From: Vulcaniibacterium thermophilum
GTDB taxonomy: Bacteria; Pseudomonadota; Gammaproteobacteria; Xanthomonadales; Xanthomonadaceae
NCBI RefSeq assembly: GCF_007923255.1
Contig: NZ_VOHJ01000007.1
Coordinates: 30,462 to 62,461, forward strand
Direction of reading: 5' to 3'
DNA: 32,000 nucleotides
Part shown: positions 2,749 through 21,012 of the stretch, one piece after another
How positions within the stretch are numbered: the first letter of the stretch is position 1
How the letters are laid out: every line of letters begins with the position of its first letter
Notes under the pieces: model-generated
Told to the model about the DNA's origin: nothing
What the model saw: only the letters and a program-made list of their open reading frames with translations
Databases searched by the model: none
Position numbers and translations under genes: made by a program

Positions 2749-3906
2749 ATGCGCCCCTTCCCCCTCGGTGAAGACATCGACGCCCTCCGCGAGGCCGTGC
2801 GCCGCTTCGCCGAGGCGGAAATCGCGCCGCGCGCGGCGCAGATCGACCACGACAACGCGTTCCCGCAGGATCTGTGGCCGAAGCTCGGCGAGATGGGCCT
2901 GCTCGGCATGACCGTGCCGGGCGAATACGGCGGCAGCGACATGGGCTACCTCGCCCATCTGGTCGCGATGGAGGAGATCTCGCGCGCGTCCGGTTCGGTC
3001 GGCCTGAGCTACGGCGCGCACTCCAACCTGTGCGTGAGCAACCTGTACGCCAACGGCACCGAGGCGCAGCGGCGGAAGTACCTGCCGAGGCTGTGCAGCG
3101 GCGAGTGGAAGGGCGCGCTGGCGATGAGCGAGCCGGGCGCAGGGTCGGATGTCGTCGGCTCCATGAGCTGTCGCGCCGAGAAGCGCGGCGATGTCTGGGT
3201 GGCCAACGGCAACAAGATGTGGATCACCAACGGCCCCGAGGCCGACGTTCTGGTGGTCTACATGCGCACGGCGGGCAAGGAGGCCGGCAGCCGCTGCATC
3301 ACCGCGTTCATCGTCGAGCGCGGCATGAAGGGCTTCCGCACCGCGCAGAAGCTCGACAAGCTCGGCATGCGCGGCTCCAACACCTGCGAGCTGGTGTTCG
3401 AGGACTGCGAGATCCCCGACGAGAACGTGCTCGGCGAGGTCAACCAGGGCGTCAGGGTGCTGATGAGCGGGCTCAACACCGAGCGGCTGGTGCTCACCGG
3501 CGGCCCGCTCGGGCTGATGCAGGCCGCGCTCGACGTCGCCCTGCCCTACGTGCGCGAACGCAAGCAGTTCGACGCGCCGATCGGCACCTTCGGGCTGATG
3601 CAGGGCAAGATCGCCGACATGTACACCGCGCTGCAGTCCAGCCGCGCGTTCGCCTACCAGGTCGCGCGCGACTACGACGCCGGCCACCGCAGCCGCGTCG
3701 ACGCGGCGGCCTGCCTGCTGCACGCCTCGGAAGCCGCGGTGCAGGTCGCACTGGAAGCGATCCAGGCGCTCGGCGGCAACGGCTACATCAACGAGTACCC
3801 GACCGGCCGCATCCTGCGCGACGCCAAGCTCTACGCGATCGGCGCGGGCACCAACGAGATCCGCCGCATGCTGATCGGCCGCGAACTGTTCGAAGGCCGC
3901 GACTGA
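2749..3906 (+). CDS. liuA: Isovaleryl-CoA dehydrogenase (acyl-CoA dehydrogenase family; LiuA/Ivd)
   Basis: 385 aa with the acyl-CoA dehydrogenase fold. IVD-like stretches include [26 protein letters not shown] and the catalytic-Glu region [20 protein letters not shown]. Context with ldh and MCCase beta supports the call. Confidence 0.9.
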
Positions 3907-13577: not shown

Positions 13578-14357
13578 TCAGCGGTCTTCCTCGACCCAGG
13601 GGCCGCTCTCCTCCTCCGGCGCGCCCCACGGGCGGGGGTGGTCGTCGCGCCAGCCCCATCCGCCGCGCCGGCCGACCTCGAACTCGCCGCGGCAACCGTG
13701 ATCGACCCAGATCCCGCCGCGCTGCACGCCCCACGAGCGGCCTTCGATGCACGGGCTGCGCGAGAACTGCCGCACCAGCCGCACGCCGCCGCGGATATCG
13801 ACCGGACAGAAGCGCGAGCGGTTGTCGCCCGACTCGCAGCGCACCAGGCGCGCCGGTTCCTGCCAGCCGCGCCGCACGCGGAACTCGGCGCGGCAGCCGC
13901 CGGCGACCCAGACGCCGCGGCGGTCCTGGCCCCAGGTCTGGCCCTCGATGCACGGCGATGCGGAAAGCTGGCGCAGCAGGCGCACGCCGCCGCGGGCGCT
14001 GACCGGGCAATGCGTCCAGCGGTTGTTGCGCGACTCGCAACGCACCACGTCGCCGCCGCCCCAGCCCGGGGATCCGCCATAGCCGATCACGAACTCGGCG
14101 CGGCAGCCGTCGTCCACCCACACGCCGTCCCGGCGCACGCCCCAGGAGCGGCCTTCCACGCACGGCGTGTCCGACAGTTGGCGCGCCAGCCGCACGCCGC
14201 CGCGGGTGTCGGCGGGGCAGAAGCGCGAACGGTTGTCGTCGGACTCGCAGCGCACGACGTTCTCGCCGTAGTGCTGACCGGCGTACTGCGCGCGCGCGGC
14301 CGGCGCGCAGGCGGCCGCCGCGAACGTGGCGATCATCAGGACCCAAGCGGCACGCAT
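13578..14357 (-). CDS. Secreted Cys-rich DUF3011-type protein with three tandem modules
   Basis: 259 aa from ATG at 14357, preceded by a GGGAG Shine-Dalgarno. Signal peptide [23 protein letters not shown]. Three roughly 65-aa repeats of RCES..NR..CP....GGVRL.RQ.S..PC.EG..WG....G.WV..GCR.EF, then an acidic Trp/Pro-rich tail. Confidence 0.8.
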
Positions 14358-14463
14358 CGTCGTCGCTCCCAGGTTGGACACCGCCGAATCTAGCCCGTGC
14401 AAATGAACCCCGTCCGAAAACTTCACGGGCGGGTAACGCGCGTGCAGTCGCCGTTCACCCGGC

Positions 14464-15465
14464 TCAGGCGCGGTCGAACGCGAAGGCAAGCACGTCGGCG
14501 ATGCGGTCGGTGTCCAGCATCGCCATCAGCAGGCGGTCGACGCCGAGCGCGACCCCCGCACAGGCCGGCATGCCCGCTTCCAGCGCGGCCAGCAGACGCT
14601 CGTCCTGCGGCGGCGCAACATGACCGCGCGCCAGACGCGTGGCGCGGTCGCGCTCGAAGCGCGCGCGTTGCTCGGCCGCATCGAGCAGCTCGTGATAACC
14701 GTTGGCGAGTTCCAGCGGACCGAGGTAGAGCTCGAAACGCTCGGCGACCGGCGGATCGCCGTGGCGGATACGCGCCAGCGCGCATTGCGAAGCGGGGTAG
14801 TCGATCACCGCCAGCAGTTGCTCGCGCGGGAACGCCGGCTGGATGCGATGGGTCATCAGCAGGTCGAGCCAGTCGTCGCGGGCCAGTCCGTCGGGATCGA
14901 TGCGGACGTCGCCGAGCGCCGCGCGCAGTTCGGCTTCGCTGGCGGTGAAGGGGTCGAGGCCGAGTGCGTCGCGGTAGAGATCGCGGAACGTGGTCTCGCG
15001 CAGGCGAGCCTCGCGCCCGACCAGCGCCAGCGCGGCCTGCACCAGTTCGGCGGTCTCGCGCGCCAGCCGGCGGTGGTCCCAGCCGACGCGGTACCACTCC
15101 AGCATGGTGAACTCGGGGTTGTGCCGGCCGCCGGCCTCGCCGTCGCGGAACACGCGGCCCAGCTCGTAGCAGTCGCCGATGCCGGCGGCGAGCAGACGCT
15201 TGAGCGCGAACTCCGGCGAGGTGCGCAGCCAGCGCGTGCGCGGCGCGCCGTCGGTGCGACCGGAGAACTCCAGCGAGAACGAGGCGATGTTGGGGTCGGT
15301 GTTGCCGGCCATCGACAGGACCGGCGTCTCCACTTCCAGCACGCCGCGTCGGGCGAAGAAGTCGCGGATCGACGCGTTGAGGCGGGCGCGCAGGCGGAGC
15401 GCTTCGACGGGCGCCGAGGGGCGCCAGTCGGCGGGCGGTGCGTCGCCGGCGCTTGTCCCCCTCAC
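14464..15465 (-). CDS. epmA: Elongation factor P--(R)-beta-lysine ligase (EpmA/PoxA/GenX); start uncertain
   Basis: Collinear with E. coli EpmA from DWRPSAPVEALRLRARLNASIRDFFARRGVLEVETPVLS onward. Class-II aaRS motifs FRDGEAGGRHNPEFTMLEWY and GVALGVDRLLM. There is no stop upstream in this frame. The preferred start is GTG at 15465, preceded by GGAGAGGG, both inside a REP arm. The alternative is ATG at 15585. Confidence 0.85.
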   Translation of the reverse strand: MRGTSAGDAPPADWRPSAPVEALRLRARLNASIRDFFARRGVLEVETPVLSMAGNTDPNIASFSLEFSGRTDGAPRTRWLRTSPEFALKRLLAAGIGDCYELGRVFRDGEAGGRHNPEFTMLEWYRVGWDHRRLARETAELVQAALALVGREARLRETTFRDLYRDALGLDPFTASEAELRAALGDVRIDPDGLARDDWLDLLMTHRIQPAFPREQLLAVIDYPASQCALARIRHGDPPVAERFELYLGPLELANGYHELLDAAEQRARFERDRATRLARGHVAPPQDERLLAALEAGMPACAGVALGVDRLLMAMLDTDRIADVLAFAFDRA

Positions 15466-15645
15466 CCCGGCCCTCTCCCCCGCAAGCGGGGGAGAGGGGG
15501 ACGAAGCGGCGAGGCGAGAAGACGAAACGTCGCTGGCGCTTGCCCCCCTCACCCCAGAGGAGCCTTCAAAGCACTCGCGTTCCATGCGACGCCCGCCGTA
15601 TCCCCCTCTCCCCCGCTTGCGGGGGAGAGGGCCGGGGTGAGGGGG
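15457..15645. repeat. 189-bp REP/MITE-like unit: two 45-bp perfectly inverted arms flanking a 99-bp core
   Basis: Arm A (15457-15501) ccccctcaccccggccctctcccccgcaagcgggggagaggggga is the exact reverse complement of arm B (15601-15645). Each arm contains its own 11-bp-stem palindrome (ccctctccccc gcaagc gggggagaggg). A partial third copy, cccccctcacccc, lies at 15543-15555. Confidence 0.9.
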
Positions 15646-15648
15646 GCG

Positions 15649-15972
15649 CGCCTGCAAGGCGCGCCAGATCGCATCGACCACCGCCTCCGGGTGCTGCAAC
15701 ACCTCGTGATCCCAGAAGCGCAGCACCCGCCATCCAGCCGCTTCAAGCCGCGCGGTACGTCGGCGATCGGCCGCCGCATGGCCAGCCTCCGCATGCTGTC
15801 CACCGTCGAGCTCCACTGCGAGCGCCCTTTCGACGCAAGCGAAATCGAGGATGAAGCCCAACGCGCGGTGCTGCCGCCGGAACTTCGCGCCAAGCTGATG
15901 GTTGCGCAGATGCCGCCACAGCAGTGCCTCGGCGTCGGTCTGTTCCTTGCGCAATCGTCTGGCGTGATCCAT
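15649..15972 (-). CDS. DUF559 (Vsr-like) endonuclease-domain ORF; 3' end undefined because it has no stop before epmA
   Basis: ATG at 15972, 20 nt after the ligA stop, with GAGG/GGGAG upstream. The 108-aa domain is MDHARRLRKEQTDAEALLWRHLRNHQLGAKFRRQHRALGFILDFACVERALAVELDGGQH...WRVLRFWDHEVL. Coordinates cover the recognisable domain only. The frame continues open through the REP unit into epmA. Confidence 0.7.
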
Positions 15973-15992
15973 CTCCCTCGCCTCGGCCGGAT

Positions 15993-18086
<2,094 letters not shown>

Positions 18087-18178
18087 TTAACGCGGGCCGC
18101 GCACCCTCGGGTCGGCCCCAGGTGGCCGCGGCGCGTGCGGCGGGCGAGCCTGAGCGCGGAAGCGACGGAGTCGAGGCC

Positions 18179-19483
18179 ATGACGCAACTGGCGCGGATCG
18201 GCGGCAGCACGCCGCAGTTCCACCGGTGGGACGATCTTCTGCGCGACGCCGCGGGCGATGCCGGCGCGCTGCTGGCCGCGTTGCAGCAGGCGCCGGCCGC
18301 GGACCGCGCGGGGCTGGCGGCACGCACGCTCGATGCCCTTAGCGATGCGCAGTTGTCCGCGCTCGCGGCGCAACCGCGCGGCGCCGAGACCCTGCGCGCC
18401 CTGCGCGACGCGGCGGCGGACGCGCCCGCCGGCGCGCCGGGCGCGGATGCGCGCGTGGCACGTGCGGACGGCGCGCTGCGGCAGGCCGACGAGGCCCGGT
18501 TGGCGAAGGAGAAACAGGAGCTGCTGCTCGATCTGGGCCAGATCGCGCTCGACATCGTCGGCATCTTCGAACCTACGCCGTTCGCCGATCTGACCAACGC
18601 CGGCATCTCGATCTGGCGCGGCAACTGGCTCGATGCCGGGCTGTCGGCCGTGGGCGTGATCCCCTACCTCGGCGATGCGGCCAAGCTGGGCAAGCTCGGC
18701 AAGTTCGGCAAGGTGATCGAACGGGCGGTCGAACTGGCGAAACTCGACCCCGGCTTCGCCGACCAGCTTCGGCCCGCGCTGAGGAAGATCAAGGACGCCA
18801 TCGACGCCGCGCCGGTCGATTCCCTGCCCGGCCCGGCGCGCGATGCCGTGCGGTCGATGAAGGGCAAGCTGGACGAGTTCTTCTCCGGCGCGGCCAAGAC
18901 CCCCACGACCGGTCCGCGAATGGCGGATGGCACGCCGCTTCCGGCCAACGTGAAGTTGGATCTGCGTGGAACGAGCGTGATCGATCCCGCTGCCGCTAGC
19001 CGCTTGACGGACGCCTCACGTTTGCCGCAGGTGAGCAATGGTAAGGTCGAGGTGACCCACGGACCCGAAGCAGGGACCACGAAGACCGTGATTCTTTCGA
19101 AGGAGGCGGGGCAGACGGTGACCAAGGACGGTTACACCATCACCAAGGACGCGAACGGCTTCCCGATCTTCAACAGCAGGTTCGACACCTTCGTTCCCGA
19201 TCATCTGCTGGGCACGGGCAAGGAGGCCGATCATTTCCGCTACGCCAACGAGCGTCTAGGCACTCTACTGCGTCAGAACCCCGAGCTCGCCAAAGACATG
19301 GGGCTCGACGCGGCGCAAGTGAAGCATCTGACCAAGCAGCCGCCCTCCTCGGCGCCGCCACCGGGTTTGACGTGGCACCATCACCAGGACGTCGGCCGCA
19401 TGCAGCTGGTCGTGCGTGCCGAGCACCAGGCCCATGTGCCGCACACCGGTGGCATGTCGATCTGGGGCGGTGGCTACAAGTAG
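18179..19483 (+). CDS. Polymorphic-toxin-like protein: unassigned N-terminus + PT-TG-like segment + C-terminal WHH-type HNH/EndoVII nuclease
   Basis: 434 aa from ATG 18179, with GGAG upstream; the track start at 18122 is a GTG extension. The C-terminus reads GFPIFNSRFDTF...DHFRYANERLG...GLTWHHHQDVGRMQLVVRAEHQAHVPHTGGMSIWGG, which matches the WHH-clade pattern. The mid region reads DIVGIFEPTPFADLTNAGISIWRGNWLDAGLSAVGVIPYLGDAAKLGKLGK and is pre-toxin-like. No signal peptide. Followed by immunity-type genes. Confidence 0.8.
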   Translation: MTQLARIGGSTPQFHRWDDLLRDAAGDAGALLAALQQAPAADRAGLAARTLDALSDAQLSALAAQPRGAETLRALRDAAADAPAGAPGADARVARADGALRQADEARLAKEKQELLLDLGQIALDIVGIFEPTPFADLTNAGISIWRGNWLDAGLSAVGVIPYLGDAAKLGKLGKFGKVIERAVELAKLDPGFADQLRPALRKIKDAIDAAPVDSLPGPARDAVRSMKGKLDEFFSGAAKTPTTGPRMADGTPLPANVKLDLRGTSVIDPAAASRLTDASRLPQVSNGKVEVTHGPEAGTTKTVILSKEAGQTVTKDGYTITKDANGFPIFNSRFDTFVPDHLLGTGKEADHFRYANERLGTLLRQNPELAKDMGLDAAQVKHLTKQPPSSAPPPGLTWHHHQDVGRMQLVVRAEHQAHVPHTGGMSIWGGGYK

Positions 19484-19516
19484 ACTCAGGCGCCCGATTC
19501 CTTTCGACCCTGGGCC

Positions 19517-19972
19517 ATGACCATCGACTGGGAAGAGTATCTCGACGTTCCGCCGGCGAGCGATGCCGACATCGCTCGCGTGGAGCACACGTTGGGCGTC
19601 ACGCTGCCGGATGATTTCCGCGATGCCTTGCGCCGGCATCAGGGCCGCCTGCCGACACGGAACGTCCTGCATGCCGACGCAATGAATCCCGTGACGTTCG
19701 GACCGCTGCTGCACGTCAGCAGCACGGCAGATGGCTATGCGGCCGACTACGAGATGACGCGGGTGGCGGCCGTGTGGCGGCGGTTGTATCCGAAGGTCGT
19801 GCCGATCGCCGACAACGGTGGCGGCAGTTGCTTCGCCTACGACTACGCCGCTGGAGAAAGGCAGCCGCCGATCGTTTTTCTCAACCACGAAGCCGAGCCC
19901 ACCGACCCGGCAGGAAAAATCCGCGTGGCGGATTCGTTTGCCGAGCTTCTTGCGAAGCTTCGCGAACAGTGA
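19517..19972 (+). CDS. SMI1/KNR4 (SUKH-1) family protein, putative cognate immunity protein
   Basis: 151 aa. SUKH-1 hallmarks: IARVEHTLGVTLPDDFRDALRRHQG near the N-terminus and VVPIADNGGGSCFAYDY near the C-terminus. Starts 34 nt after the toxin stop. Confidence 0.85.
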   Translation: MTIDWEEYLDVPPASDADIARVEHTLGVTLPDDFRDALRRHQGRLPTRNVLHADAMNPVTFGPLLHVSSTADGYAADYEMTRVAAVWRRLYPKVVPIADNGGGSCFAYDYAAGERQPPIVFLNHEAEPTDPAGKIRVADSFAELLAKLREQ

Positions 19973-19999
19973 CCCACCGGTCCCCGGAAGCGACGGAGC

Positions 20000-20356
20000 A
20001 TGTCCGAGCAGAGGATTTCACCCGAGTTGAAGCCGAGCGATGTGCGGTTGGAGAGAATCGGCGCGATCCTCGGAACGCTCCTGCCTGCAGAGGCGGACTG
20101 GATCACGGCCGAAGCGACCGTCGGCGACGACTGGTCGGAAGTCCGCTTTACCTACGGCGGCGCCGATGGAACGCCGCGGTATTTCTCGATGGCCGAGCAT
20201 CCGGCGACCGCGGCCGGCGATATCGGCGATGTCCTCATCGACATGCGCGAGCGGTTGCGGCAGGACGGCGGTGAGGTGTGGAACGGTTGCCGCTTCACCT
20301 TGCAGCGCGATGGGCGCTTCTCGCTCGACTTCGCCTTCGACCAGGCGACTTCGTAG
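20000..20356 (+). CDS. YezG/DUF600-like immunity-type protein
   Basis: 118 aa with GGAG 4 nt before the ATG. The pattern LPAEADWITAEATVGDDWSEVRFTY ... GGEVWNGCRFTLQRDGRFSLDFAFD mirrors the DUF600/YezG layout as I recall it (P.eW...a.v.dd.sev.F.y ... eW....l.l...G.f..df.y). Needs HMM confirmation. Confidence 0.65.
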   Translation: MSEQRISPELKPSDVRLERIGAILGTLLPAEADWITAEATVGDDWSEVRFTYGGADGTPRYFSMAEHPATAAGDIGDVLIDMRERLRQDGGEVWNGCRFTLQRDGRFSLDFAFDQATS

Positions 20357-20378
20357 CGGGCGCATGCAGGAGGCCCGC

Positions 20379-20810
20379 GTGAAGTCGTCCGATCTCATCC
20401 TCGCCTCGATCGCGGAGCGCCTGGCGACCGATCCGAAGGTCAACGCCGCGCCGTGGGATCAGTACGCACTCGTCGCCTGGTACGGCGACGGCGTGAGCAA
20501 GCTCAACGGGTTCCGCTACCGCGGCGATGCGCCAGGCGAGCCTGCCACTCCGGCCTCGTTCGAGATCGAGGACCTGCTGGACGATCTGCGTGCGGCAACG
20601 CAGGTGGAAGGCAAGGGGCCGTGGCGCGCGTGCGTGGTTCGGCTGGATCGCGCCGATGGGAAGGTGACGGTGGATTTCGAGTACGAGCGGCCCGAGGTGT
20701 GGGAGGTCACGCCGGCGACGGTGCGCCGGGTCGCGGAGCGCGCGAGATCCGCGGACGCCCTCACCCCAACCCCTCGTCCGCAGCACGGGAGAGGGGCCAC
20801 GTTGCCGTAG
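20379..20810 (+). CDS. Second YezG/DUF600-like immunity-type protein (diverged); C-terminus encoded by a REP copy
   Basis: In the frame of track ORF 20040..20810. The preferred start is GTG 20379, 6 nt after AGGAGG; ATG 20364 is the alternative. Layout PWDQYALVAWYGDGVSKLNGFRY ... GPWRACVVRLDRADGKVTVDFEYE parallels the previous ORF. The last roughly 17 codons (ALTPTPRPQHGRGATLP) lie in REP sequence. Confidence 0.55.
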   Translation: MKSSDLILASIAERLATDPKVNAAPWDQYALVAWYGDGVSKLNGFRYRGDAPGEPATPASFEIEDLLDDLRAATQVEGKGPWRACVVRLDRADGKVTVDFEYERPEVWEVTPATVRRVAERARSADALTPTPRPQHGRGATLP

Positions 20811-21012
20811 GTTGGGCTGAGCGCAGCGAAGCCCAACATCGCGCGGCCTCGTACATCAAACATCGCTTCAGGTGCAGACGAGCCATGCGCGCCTGCGGCG
20901 CGCGCCCTCACCCCGACCCCTCTCCGGCCCGCCGCAGCGCGGCGGGCGTTCGTCGGCGCGCGAGCCTGCGGCTTGCAAGCGCGCCTCCCCACCCCGCACG
21001 CGGGAGAGGGGC
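20757..21012. repeat. REP cluster at the island/zipA junction (two repeat families)
   Basis: CCCTCACCCC-type copies at 20757-20797 and 20904-20925, with a GGGAGAGGGG partner at 21002-21011; this is the same family as 15457-15645. An 8-bp-stem hairpin GTTGGGCT-N11-AGCCCAAC lies at 20811-20837. A perfect 9-bp hairpin GCCCGCCGC-AGC-GCGGCGGGC lies at 20927-20947. Confidence 0.75.

Follow-up and report, generated by a model that had tools for sequence, protein, structure and literature searches.

In the stretch of the Vulcaniibacterium thermophilum genome that we analysed (32,000 nucleotides (nt) of contig NZ_VOHJ01000007.1, positions 30,462 to 62,461; hereafter the window), a toxin gene with a WHH/colicin-DNase tip precedes three small open reading frames (ORFs) on the same strand. 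We consider it probable that at this locus the toxic tip has been replaced one or more times while the earlier immunity genes stayed in place, such that ORF1, a SUKH-1 protein, would be the immunity against the present WHH tip, and ORF2 and ORF3, two short YezG/EsaG-like proteins, would be retained immunities against nucleases of the Endonuclea_NS_2 type (hereafter NS_2; Tox-NucA). In the scenario that we favour, a cassette of ~1.16 kb, made up of the WHH tip, the SUKH-1 gene and the 5' end of a YezG-like gene, would have recombined between the constant region of the toxin and ORF2, and its entry would have removed an NS_2 tip and left the NS_2 immunity gene behind. Because the cassette would have recombined at that point, the array can be read as layers, with the newest immunity beside the toxin and older ones downstream. 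ORF1 would have arrived with the WHH tip and would bind and neutralise the WHH DNase inside the producer cell; ORF2 would be an inhibitor of NS_2 subtype A, a tip still carried at the same locus by close relatives; and ORF3 would inhibit NS_2 subtype B and is probably left over from an older tip.

The locus is bounded by ligA (15993-18077, - strand) on one side and by zipA/smc on the other, and the surrounding DNA has a guanine-plus-cytosine (GC) content of ~72%. The features on which the argument rests are the following.

18179-19483, + strand: polymorphic toxin gene with a WHH/colicin-DNase tip, 434 amino acids (aa) according to public gene callers
18500-18889, + strand: conserved pre-toxin core, spanning roughly aa 108-237 in the 434-aa form of the toxin
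18896-20056, + strand: putative swapped-in cassette relative to metagenome contig L018, taking in the WHH tip, ORF1 and codons 1-19 of ORF2 (from blastn alignments to L018 and L016, mismatch map, composition)
19145-19471, + strand: C-terminal DNase tip of the Colicin-DNase/WHH type (HNH/EndoVII superfamily), from Pfam and Protein Data Bank (PDB) sequence matches
19517-19972, + strand: ORF1, SUKH-1 (SMI1/KNR4), 151 aa
20000-20356, + strand: ORF2, short YezG/EsaG-like protein (DUF600/Imm36), 118 aa
20379-20810, + strand: ORF3, divergent YezG/EsaG-like protein, 143 aa
20751-20839, no strand assigned: REP-like (repetitive extragenic palindrome-like) repeat, CCCTCACCCC...GGGAGAGGGG plus GTTGGGCTGAGCGCAGCGAAGCCCAAC, from a repeat search, the sequence and the alignment of ORF3 homologues

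This layout agrees with the initial annotation of the DNA, which had described a toxin gene and then three small same-strand ORFs with short spacers: all four genes lie on the + strand, the spacers of 27 and 22 nt between the small genes are as it gave them, and the gap between the toxin and ORF1 is 33 nt where it had 34. An upstream in-frame GTG at 18122 is an alternative start of the toxin that would yield 453 aa. ORF3 starts at the GTG at 20379, which is preceded by a Shine-Dalgarno sequence (AGGAGG at 20367-20372); a purely mechanical call would begin at 20364, with an in-frame ATG, but 38 homologues together with the public gene calls favour 20379. Each of the genes has homologues elsewhere and significant matches to hidden Markov models (HMMs), so that the toxin and ORF1-ORF3 are not chance ORFs of GC-rich DNA. 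The scans found no promoter-like site and no terminator-like site between the genes (the only one detected is on the opposite strand), in a genome whose 70% GC makes promoter and terminator scans poorly informative; given the tight same-strand spacing and this lack of an intervening terminator-like site, co-transcription of the three small genes is likely. Rfam and tRNA scans of the window gave no match. The PADLOC library returned nothing for the toxin, ORF2 or ORF3 and a weak PDC-M40A match alone, to the SUKH protein, on which ground a phage-defence system was rejected.

Probable tip exchange and toxin-immunity pairing

The exchange can be followed most closely against L018, the metagenome contig that carries the closest NS_2 allele. 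L018 and the window share 91% identity over 18089-18895 and 87% over 20057-20745, and between these matching stretches L018 has a 579-nt NS_2 tip where the window has 1161 nt, which places the breakpoints within a few bases; L016 repeats the pattern. In the composition profile GC falls to 0.64-0.65 over 18500-20500, and the cassette itself has the same value, against about 0.72 in the flanks. An NS_2 tip with a 111-aa ORF2 homologue 1-3 nt downstream is found in L016, L017, L018 and L020, and in L018 an ORF3 homologue is present after the ORF2-like gene. The right junction is mosaic to ~20196, with 25 mismatches to L018 in 20057-20196 and 2 in 20197-20356; the 5' ~200 nt of ORF2 stem from a diverged allele, and the ORF2 protein is therefore a mosaic. 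Since this diverged part still codes for the N-terminal helix of the family, the incoming DNA probably had a YezG-like gene of its own, and the exchange was probably resolved by homologous recombination inside that gene. The view that surplus immunity genes are relics of displaced toxin tips, which the initial annotation had offered in general terms, is backed by these comparative loci.

The nearest homologues of ORF3 pair with a different NS_2 toxin: in Luteimonas aquatica (L009), L012 and L013 they stand behind a shorter one. In L014 and L015, RNase_A_bac and CdiI_2 are followed by an orphan ORF3 homologue at the chromosomal site that carries an NS_2 toxin with an ORF3 homologue in L012 and L013; this is an independent displacement in which the orphan immunity gene was kept. 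A kinship between the window toxin and the NS_2 toxin of L. aquatica was considered and rejected: the two have no similarity, the latter belonging to a different N-terminal family.

The toxin itself has the make-up expected of an exchangeable tip on a constant carrier. Its tip matches both Colicin-DNase (PF12639; 62.4 bits, cut-off 25, E = 7.4e-17) and WHH (PF14414; 52.6 bits, cut-off 25.1, E = 3.9e-14) in Pfam, resembles the solved Rhs toxin C-terminal domains 8bd1 (E = 3e-5) and 8h8a in a PDB sequence search, and has its motifs readable in the sequence (WHHH within LTWHHHQD, and HVPHTGG). The core, of ~125 residues, bears the motifs GIFEPTPF and IPYxGDAAKLGKLGK and ends in DEFFSG, the border between the constant and variable parts. 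A search for toxin homologues returned 167, and among 119 homologues 30 share the whole protein, 25 the WHH tip only and 64 the N-terminal core only; every alignment of the 64 ends at aa 231-237, that is, at DEFFSG, and the tips on these core-only homologues are Endonuclea_NS_2, CdiA_C, Tox-REase-7, Ntox46 and HNH. By these alignments the toxin is polymorphic, with a constant N-terminus, an exchangeable C-terminal tip and a sharp border between them.

Core-bearing toxins occur in Proteobacteria, Planctomycetota, Acidobacteriota and Verrucomicrobiota (related loci L021-L100). The N-terminal 239 aa of the toxin have no Pfam match at E <= 10, and the core has no match in NCBIfam or, by sequence, in the PDB. 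Among 65 relatives that share the core, scanned at E <= 0.01, there was no PT-TG, LXG, PAAR, Rhs or other trafficking family; PAAR (PF05488) is present in one homologue that shares only the WHH tip, P0085. An assignment of the N-terminus to the PT-TG (pre-toxin TG) domain, which a likeness in motif layout had suggested, was rejected, as neither the window protein nor the 65 relatives gave the corresponding Pfam match. The constant domain is the only element of the locus with some chance of being new. We offer only tentatively the idea that the core could be an undescribed module for delivery or membrane translocation, and that the short YezG-like proteins of 100-123 aa might be a minimal EsaG-type 'toxin-deformation' inhibitor in diderms. 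As a separate observation, in ten related loci (L029 at ~2830-3697, L031, L035, L037, L038, L040, L041, L042, L089 and L091; hosts Rubrivivax, Sphingomonas and Novosphingobium) the gene that immediately precedes the toxin, in the same orientation, codes for a DUF1521 protein with a GDPH motif (Pfam E = 6.6e-35); this protein, which may assist the toxin or be secreted along with it, has no gene in the window.

How tips and immunities are paired was read from a scan of one genome per species, which yielded 80 loci with the toxin N-terminal core, tips and immunities being called with local HMMs. The hosts are Luteimonas, Rubrivivax, Ottowia, Sphingomonas, Caulobacter, Novosphingobium, Qipengyuania and Paracoccus, as well as members of the Planctomycetota, Acidobacteriota and Verrucomicrobiota. 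Of 29 NS_2 tips, 28 have a YezG-like gene behind them, and in the exception the contig ends 23 nt after the toxin domain. Two subtypes can be told apart among these tips, with 40-90% and 47-86% identity inside the subtypes and 29-41% across them; the partner of subtype A is the ORF2 family and that of subtype B the ORF3 family. No NS_2 domain was found in any frame of the 32-kb window, and ORF2 and ORF3 are therefore orphans there. The initial annotation had called YezG-like proteins unusual in a high-GC Gram-negative organism; this does not hold, because Imm36/DUF600 was already listed in proteobacteria in 2012 (PMC3482391) and 28 NS_2/YezG-like pairs were found here, in Luteimonas, Rubrivivax, Ottowia, Sphingomonas, Caulobacter and Novosphingobium. 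At four loci the YezG-like genes form arrays of 2-7. L069 (3007-5635), from a metagenome-assembled genome (MAG) of the Proteobacteria, has seven YezG-like genes in a homogeneous array, and L072 (4862-8220), from an Ottowia MAG, has six together with two orphan NS_2 tips; by their gene content these two show staphylococcal-style DUF600 arrays in Betaproteobacteria.

WHH tips follow a different rule. ORF1 matches SMI1_KNR4 (PF09346) with 75.9 bits against a cut-off of 25.4 (E = 5.7e-21, model positions 1-124 of 125), which bears out its earlier reading as SUKH-1, and it also exceeds the SUKH_6 cut-off (47.4 vs 27 bits). In the genome loci with a WHH tip the next gene is a SUKH gene in 6/6 and a YezG-like gene in 0/6, and a SUKH gene also stands behind the WHH tip in L019. 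Which of the three ORFs neutralises the WHH domain had been left open; since the WHH-SUKH adjacency is invariant and Tox-WHH has been listed with Imm-SUKH as its immunity (PMC3482391), we infer that it is ORF1 that would act as the cognate immunity. The combination of WHH, SUKH and two YezG-like genes was found in none of the six WHH loci from other genomes.

Family and fold of ORF2 and ORF3

ORF2 belongs to a recognised family. It scores 26.0 bits against the Pfam YezG-like model (PF04634), above the gathering score of 21.7 (E = 1.2e-5), in line with the YezG/DUF600 likeness first noticed by eye, and it finds EsaG (8guo) in the PDB by sequence (E = 0.0026, residues 21-113). A word-indexed search for its relatives gave three, whereas an exhaustive profile search gave 67 representatives, mostly of 100-117 aa; some long low-complexity proteins among these were discarded, and of the 53 that were aligned 48 match YezG-like (best E = 6.2e-20). 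The AlphaFold2 (AF2) model of ORF2, with a predicted local distance difference test (pLDDT) score of 88.2, has EsaG (8gup) as its best Foldseek match (E = 1.1e-7, template modelling (TM) score 0.69, root-mean-square deviation 2.8), and its top six matches are all EsaG or BH3703.

ORF3 is more distant. Its score against the same Pfam model is 17.1 bits (E = 0.006), below the cut-off of 21.7, and 38 of 39 members of its family match YezG-like at E <= 1 (best 3.8e-5). Searches of the PDB by sequence, with the single sequence and with the family profile, were both without a significant match (EsaG, E = 0.98), and for this reason a comparison of folds was needed. The AF2 model (pLDDT 86.5) has EsaG (8guo) as its best Foldseek match (E = 1.6e-6, TM 0.50); the top four matches are all EsaG or BH3703, and the next has E = 0.05. 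Both models show a layout of helix, two strands, helix and two strands, and for both of them EsaG and BH3703, which are DUF600 structures, are the only significant PDB matches in Foldseek.

Direct comparison joins the two proteins to each other. The common layout that had been seen in ORF2 and ORF3 from the letters is confirmed by BLASTP (E = 2e-7, 35% identity over the C-terminal 51 residues) and by hhalign of the two family profiles (98.2% probability, E = 3.4e-14, 120 columns). The YezG/DUF600 likeness proposed for ORF3 thus stands as far as its homology to ORF2 and its EsaG/BH3703 fold are concerned and fails at the Pfam cut-off, and ORF3 is a divergent, short relative within the YezG-like superfamily, not a Pfam-defined member. 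ORF2 and ORF3 cover ~13-117 of the 146 positions of the YezG-like model and form short sub-families. In an NCBIfam scan the sole match was TIGR01741, the staphylococcal tandem DUF600 model, to which ORF2 (29.9 bits) and ORF3 (19.7 bits) both score far below the cut-off of 82.05.

The 3' end of ORF3 has been altered. Its final ~20 residues (ALTPTPRPQHGRGATLP) are read-through into the REP-like repeat at 20751-20839, which overlaps and lengthens the gene and replaces its stop codon; aligned homologues end with ...RARP at a length of 123 aa, and the AF2 model shows the tail as disordered. Related REP-like copies lie at 20887-21010 and 15441-15645. The repeats are GC-rich (CCCTCACCCC...GGGGAGAGGG), their translation gives PHPxPLPRKRGRGG-like peptides, and two REP-like copies, at 15457-15501 and 15601-15645, are perfect inverted repeats of each other over 45 nt.

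Possible maintenance of the orphan genes and rival explanations

A sister MAG (GCA_049323175.1; L010, 8859-9428) carries a decayed allele that is about 98-99% identical over the shared stretches and that is also present in an independent metagenome contig (L011, 1243-1812). In L010 the segment corresponding to ~18904-20190 is deleted, which fuses the constant region of the toxin in frame to the C-terminal half of ORF2 (a fusion that the NCBI annotation calls a 'YezG family' protein), and a further 163 nt that include the toxin start (window 18122-18284) and another 4 nt are lost as well. The right end of the deletion (20190) matches the mosaic junction of the window ORF2 (~20196). ORF3 is intact in L010, with 1 non-synonymous and 3 synonymous differences over the first 121 codons, that is, before the indel-disrupted tail derived from the REP-like repeat.

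Several observations weigh against the explanation by tip exchange and retained immunity and have to be set beside it. The family assignments are imperfect: ORF3 misses the Pfam cut-off, the TM-scores of ORF2 and ORF3 to EsaG are moderate (0.5-0.7), and ORF2 (118 aa) and the ORF3 family (123 aa) are ~30 residues shorter than canonical DUF600 proteins (about 150-160 aa). ORF2 is a mosaic with a diverged 5' end. No recognised secretion signal or trafficking domain was found in the toxin, in which no signal peptide is visible by eye, and no secretion-gene neighbours common across taxa were found among the 80 loci. Signs that the orphans are still under selection are weak: the sister MAG has lost half of ORF2, the ORF2 core compared with L018 gives a ratio of non-synonymous to synonymous substitution rates (dN/dS) of 0.48 with few changes behind it, and the L018 copy of ORF3 has a 1-nt insertion at ~1860-1880 that shifts the frame, which is either a real pseudogene or a metagenome assembly error. 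The dN/dS comparisons of the orphans, with too few changes or saturated, favour neither maintenance nor decay. Lastly, the sequence covers 32 kb of the genome, which leaves room for an NS_2 toxin elsewhere.

Part of this evidence would suit the view that ORF2 and ORF3 are non-functional relics of the tip swap, unselected and decaying. The L010 and L011 alleles without the toxin tip and the N-terminal half of ORF2, the frameshift in L018, a dN/dS of only 0.48 and the repeat insertion that displaced the stop codon of ORF3 are all compatible with it. We nevertheless regard it as rather unlikely, as both frames are intact in the window and in eight metagenome contigs, both proteins give confident models (pLDDT 86-88) and ORF3 has a strong Shine-Dalgarno sequence and survives undamaged in a MAG from which all the rest has gone. 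Over its final 53 residues, moreover, ORF2 does not differ from the copy in L018, where the gene has kept its toxin partner. Alleles of this locus armed with NS_2 are still in circulation (L018, L016), which makes selection for immunity plausible, and under retained immunity ORF2 and ORF3 would most likely still shield the cell from NS_2-armed relatives, as other samples contain the NS_2 allele of the same locus. If they act as EsaG does, they would enter the nuclease fold and deform its beta-beta-alpha metal finger.

Somewhat less likely still is that the two genes are working immunities whose NS_2 toxins lie in other parts of the genome, beyond the 32-kb window. The limited visible sequence permits this, and several members of the toxin family per genome are common (three loci in Ottowia flava, two in Glacieibacterium frigidum), but a YezG-like gene stands directly behind its own NS_2 toxin in the loci noted above, the window has no NS_2 domain, and the synteny with L018 accounts for the position of ORF2 and ORF3 without a distant partner. 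That the three small proteins act jointly on the WHH toxin, as a complex or as redundant immunities, is highly improbable: the tight one-strand spacing and likely co-transcription would fit such a unit, but WHH alleles of the same toxin (6/6 genomes and L019) have the SUKH gene only, the ORF2 and ORF3 families are found alone behind NS_2 toxins, and inhibition of the EsaG type is specific to the NS_2 fold (PMC9616950). Retained NS_2 immunity behind a newer WHH-SUKH-1 pair hence remains our preferred reading of the array.

Neighbouring genes and known systems

Two other genes of the window deserve a brief record. A gene for a DUF559 protein (Vsr-like endonuclease domain; ~15650-15990, - strand, Pfam E = 1.6e-35) lies between an epmA-like gene and ligA, beside the REP-like inverted repeats, at a place where the annotation of the syntenic L010 shows no gene. 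A cysteine-rich DUF3011 protein (13578-14360, - strand, Pfam E = 3.5e-68) has three internal repeats (VRCES..NR...CP...RGGVRL.RQLS.SPC.EG.SWG).

The locus belongs to a known type of bacterial warfare system, and the understanding of such systems is unchanged by it; what sets it apart locally is that its YezG-like proteins belong to short sub-families, that WHH and SUKH occur together with two YezG-like genes, and that the toxin core is unannotated. Its value is that of a clean natural case of polymorphic toxin evolution, with an NS_2 allele of ancestral type, an allele with WHH and SUKH swapped in and a decayed MAG allele, all in near-identical backgrounds, and it leads to the specificity predictions that WHH is countered by SUKH, NS_2 subtype A by the ORF2 family and NS_2 subtype B by the ORF3 family.

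CDI (contact-dependent inhibition) and Rhs loci offer a close parallel for the mode of evolution. Downstream of CDI and Rhs toxin genes, Poole et al. in 2011 are said to have described orphan modules of the cdiA-CT/cdiI and rhs-CT/rhsI kind. These systems resemble the present one in their constant N-terminus with a sharp demarcation motif (here DEFFSG), in the way incoming cassettes of tip and immunity displace residents while older immunity genes pile up downstream, and, in L072, in the retention of orphan NS_2 tips. They differ in that the window toxin is small (about 430 aa) and without FHA, Rhs, PAAR or VENN elements, and in that the window has kept only immunity genes, the displaced tips being gone.

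For the immunity proteins themselves, the experimentally studied pairs are EsaD-EsaG of Staphylococcus aureus and YeeF-YezG of Bacillus subtilis, both from Firmicutes. ORF2 and ORF3 are like EsaG and BH3703 in sequence and fold, their families stand directly behind Endonuclea_NS_2 tips, and tandem arrays of paralogues occur in the relatives L069 and L072 as they do in S. aureus. For EsaG the mechanism has been described as insertion into the nuclease, whose beta-beta-alpha metal finger thereby becomes disordered (PMC9616950). The present proteins are, however, shorter (111-123 aa vs about 150-160), their hosts are diderm Proteobacteria, the toxins have an unannotated N-terminal core without LXG or other type VII secretion system (T7SS) domains, and the partner NS_2 toxin is absent from the window. 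EsaG/YezG-type immunity, so far studied only in T7SS systems of Firmicutes, routinely pairs with NS_2 nucleases in Proteobacteria.

Zhang, de Souza, Anantharaman, Iyer and Aravind (2012; PMC3482391) equated Imm36 with DUF600, assigned it a BH3703-like fold and gave Tox-NucA as the toxin it mainly accompanies; they listed it in alpha-, beta-, gamma- and delta-proteobacteria and in homogeneous as well as heterogeneous polyimmunity loci. The window array shares with those loci the family, the main partner Tox-NucA and the use of SUKH for Tox-WHH. It differs from them in comprising three genes that are attached to a complete toxin gene and do not form a stand-alone island, and in an origin by tip replacement that can here be traced base by base.

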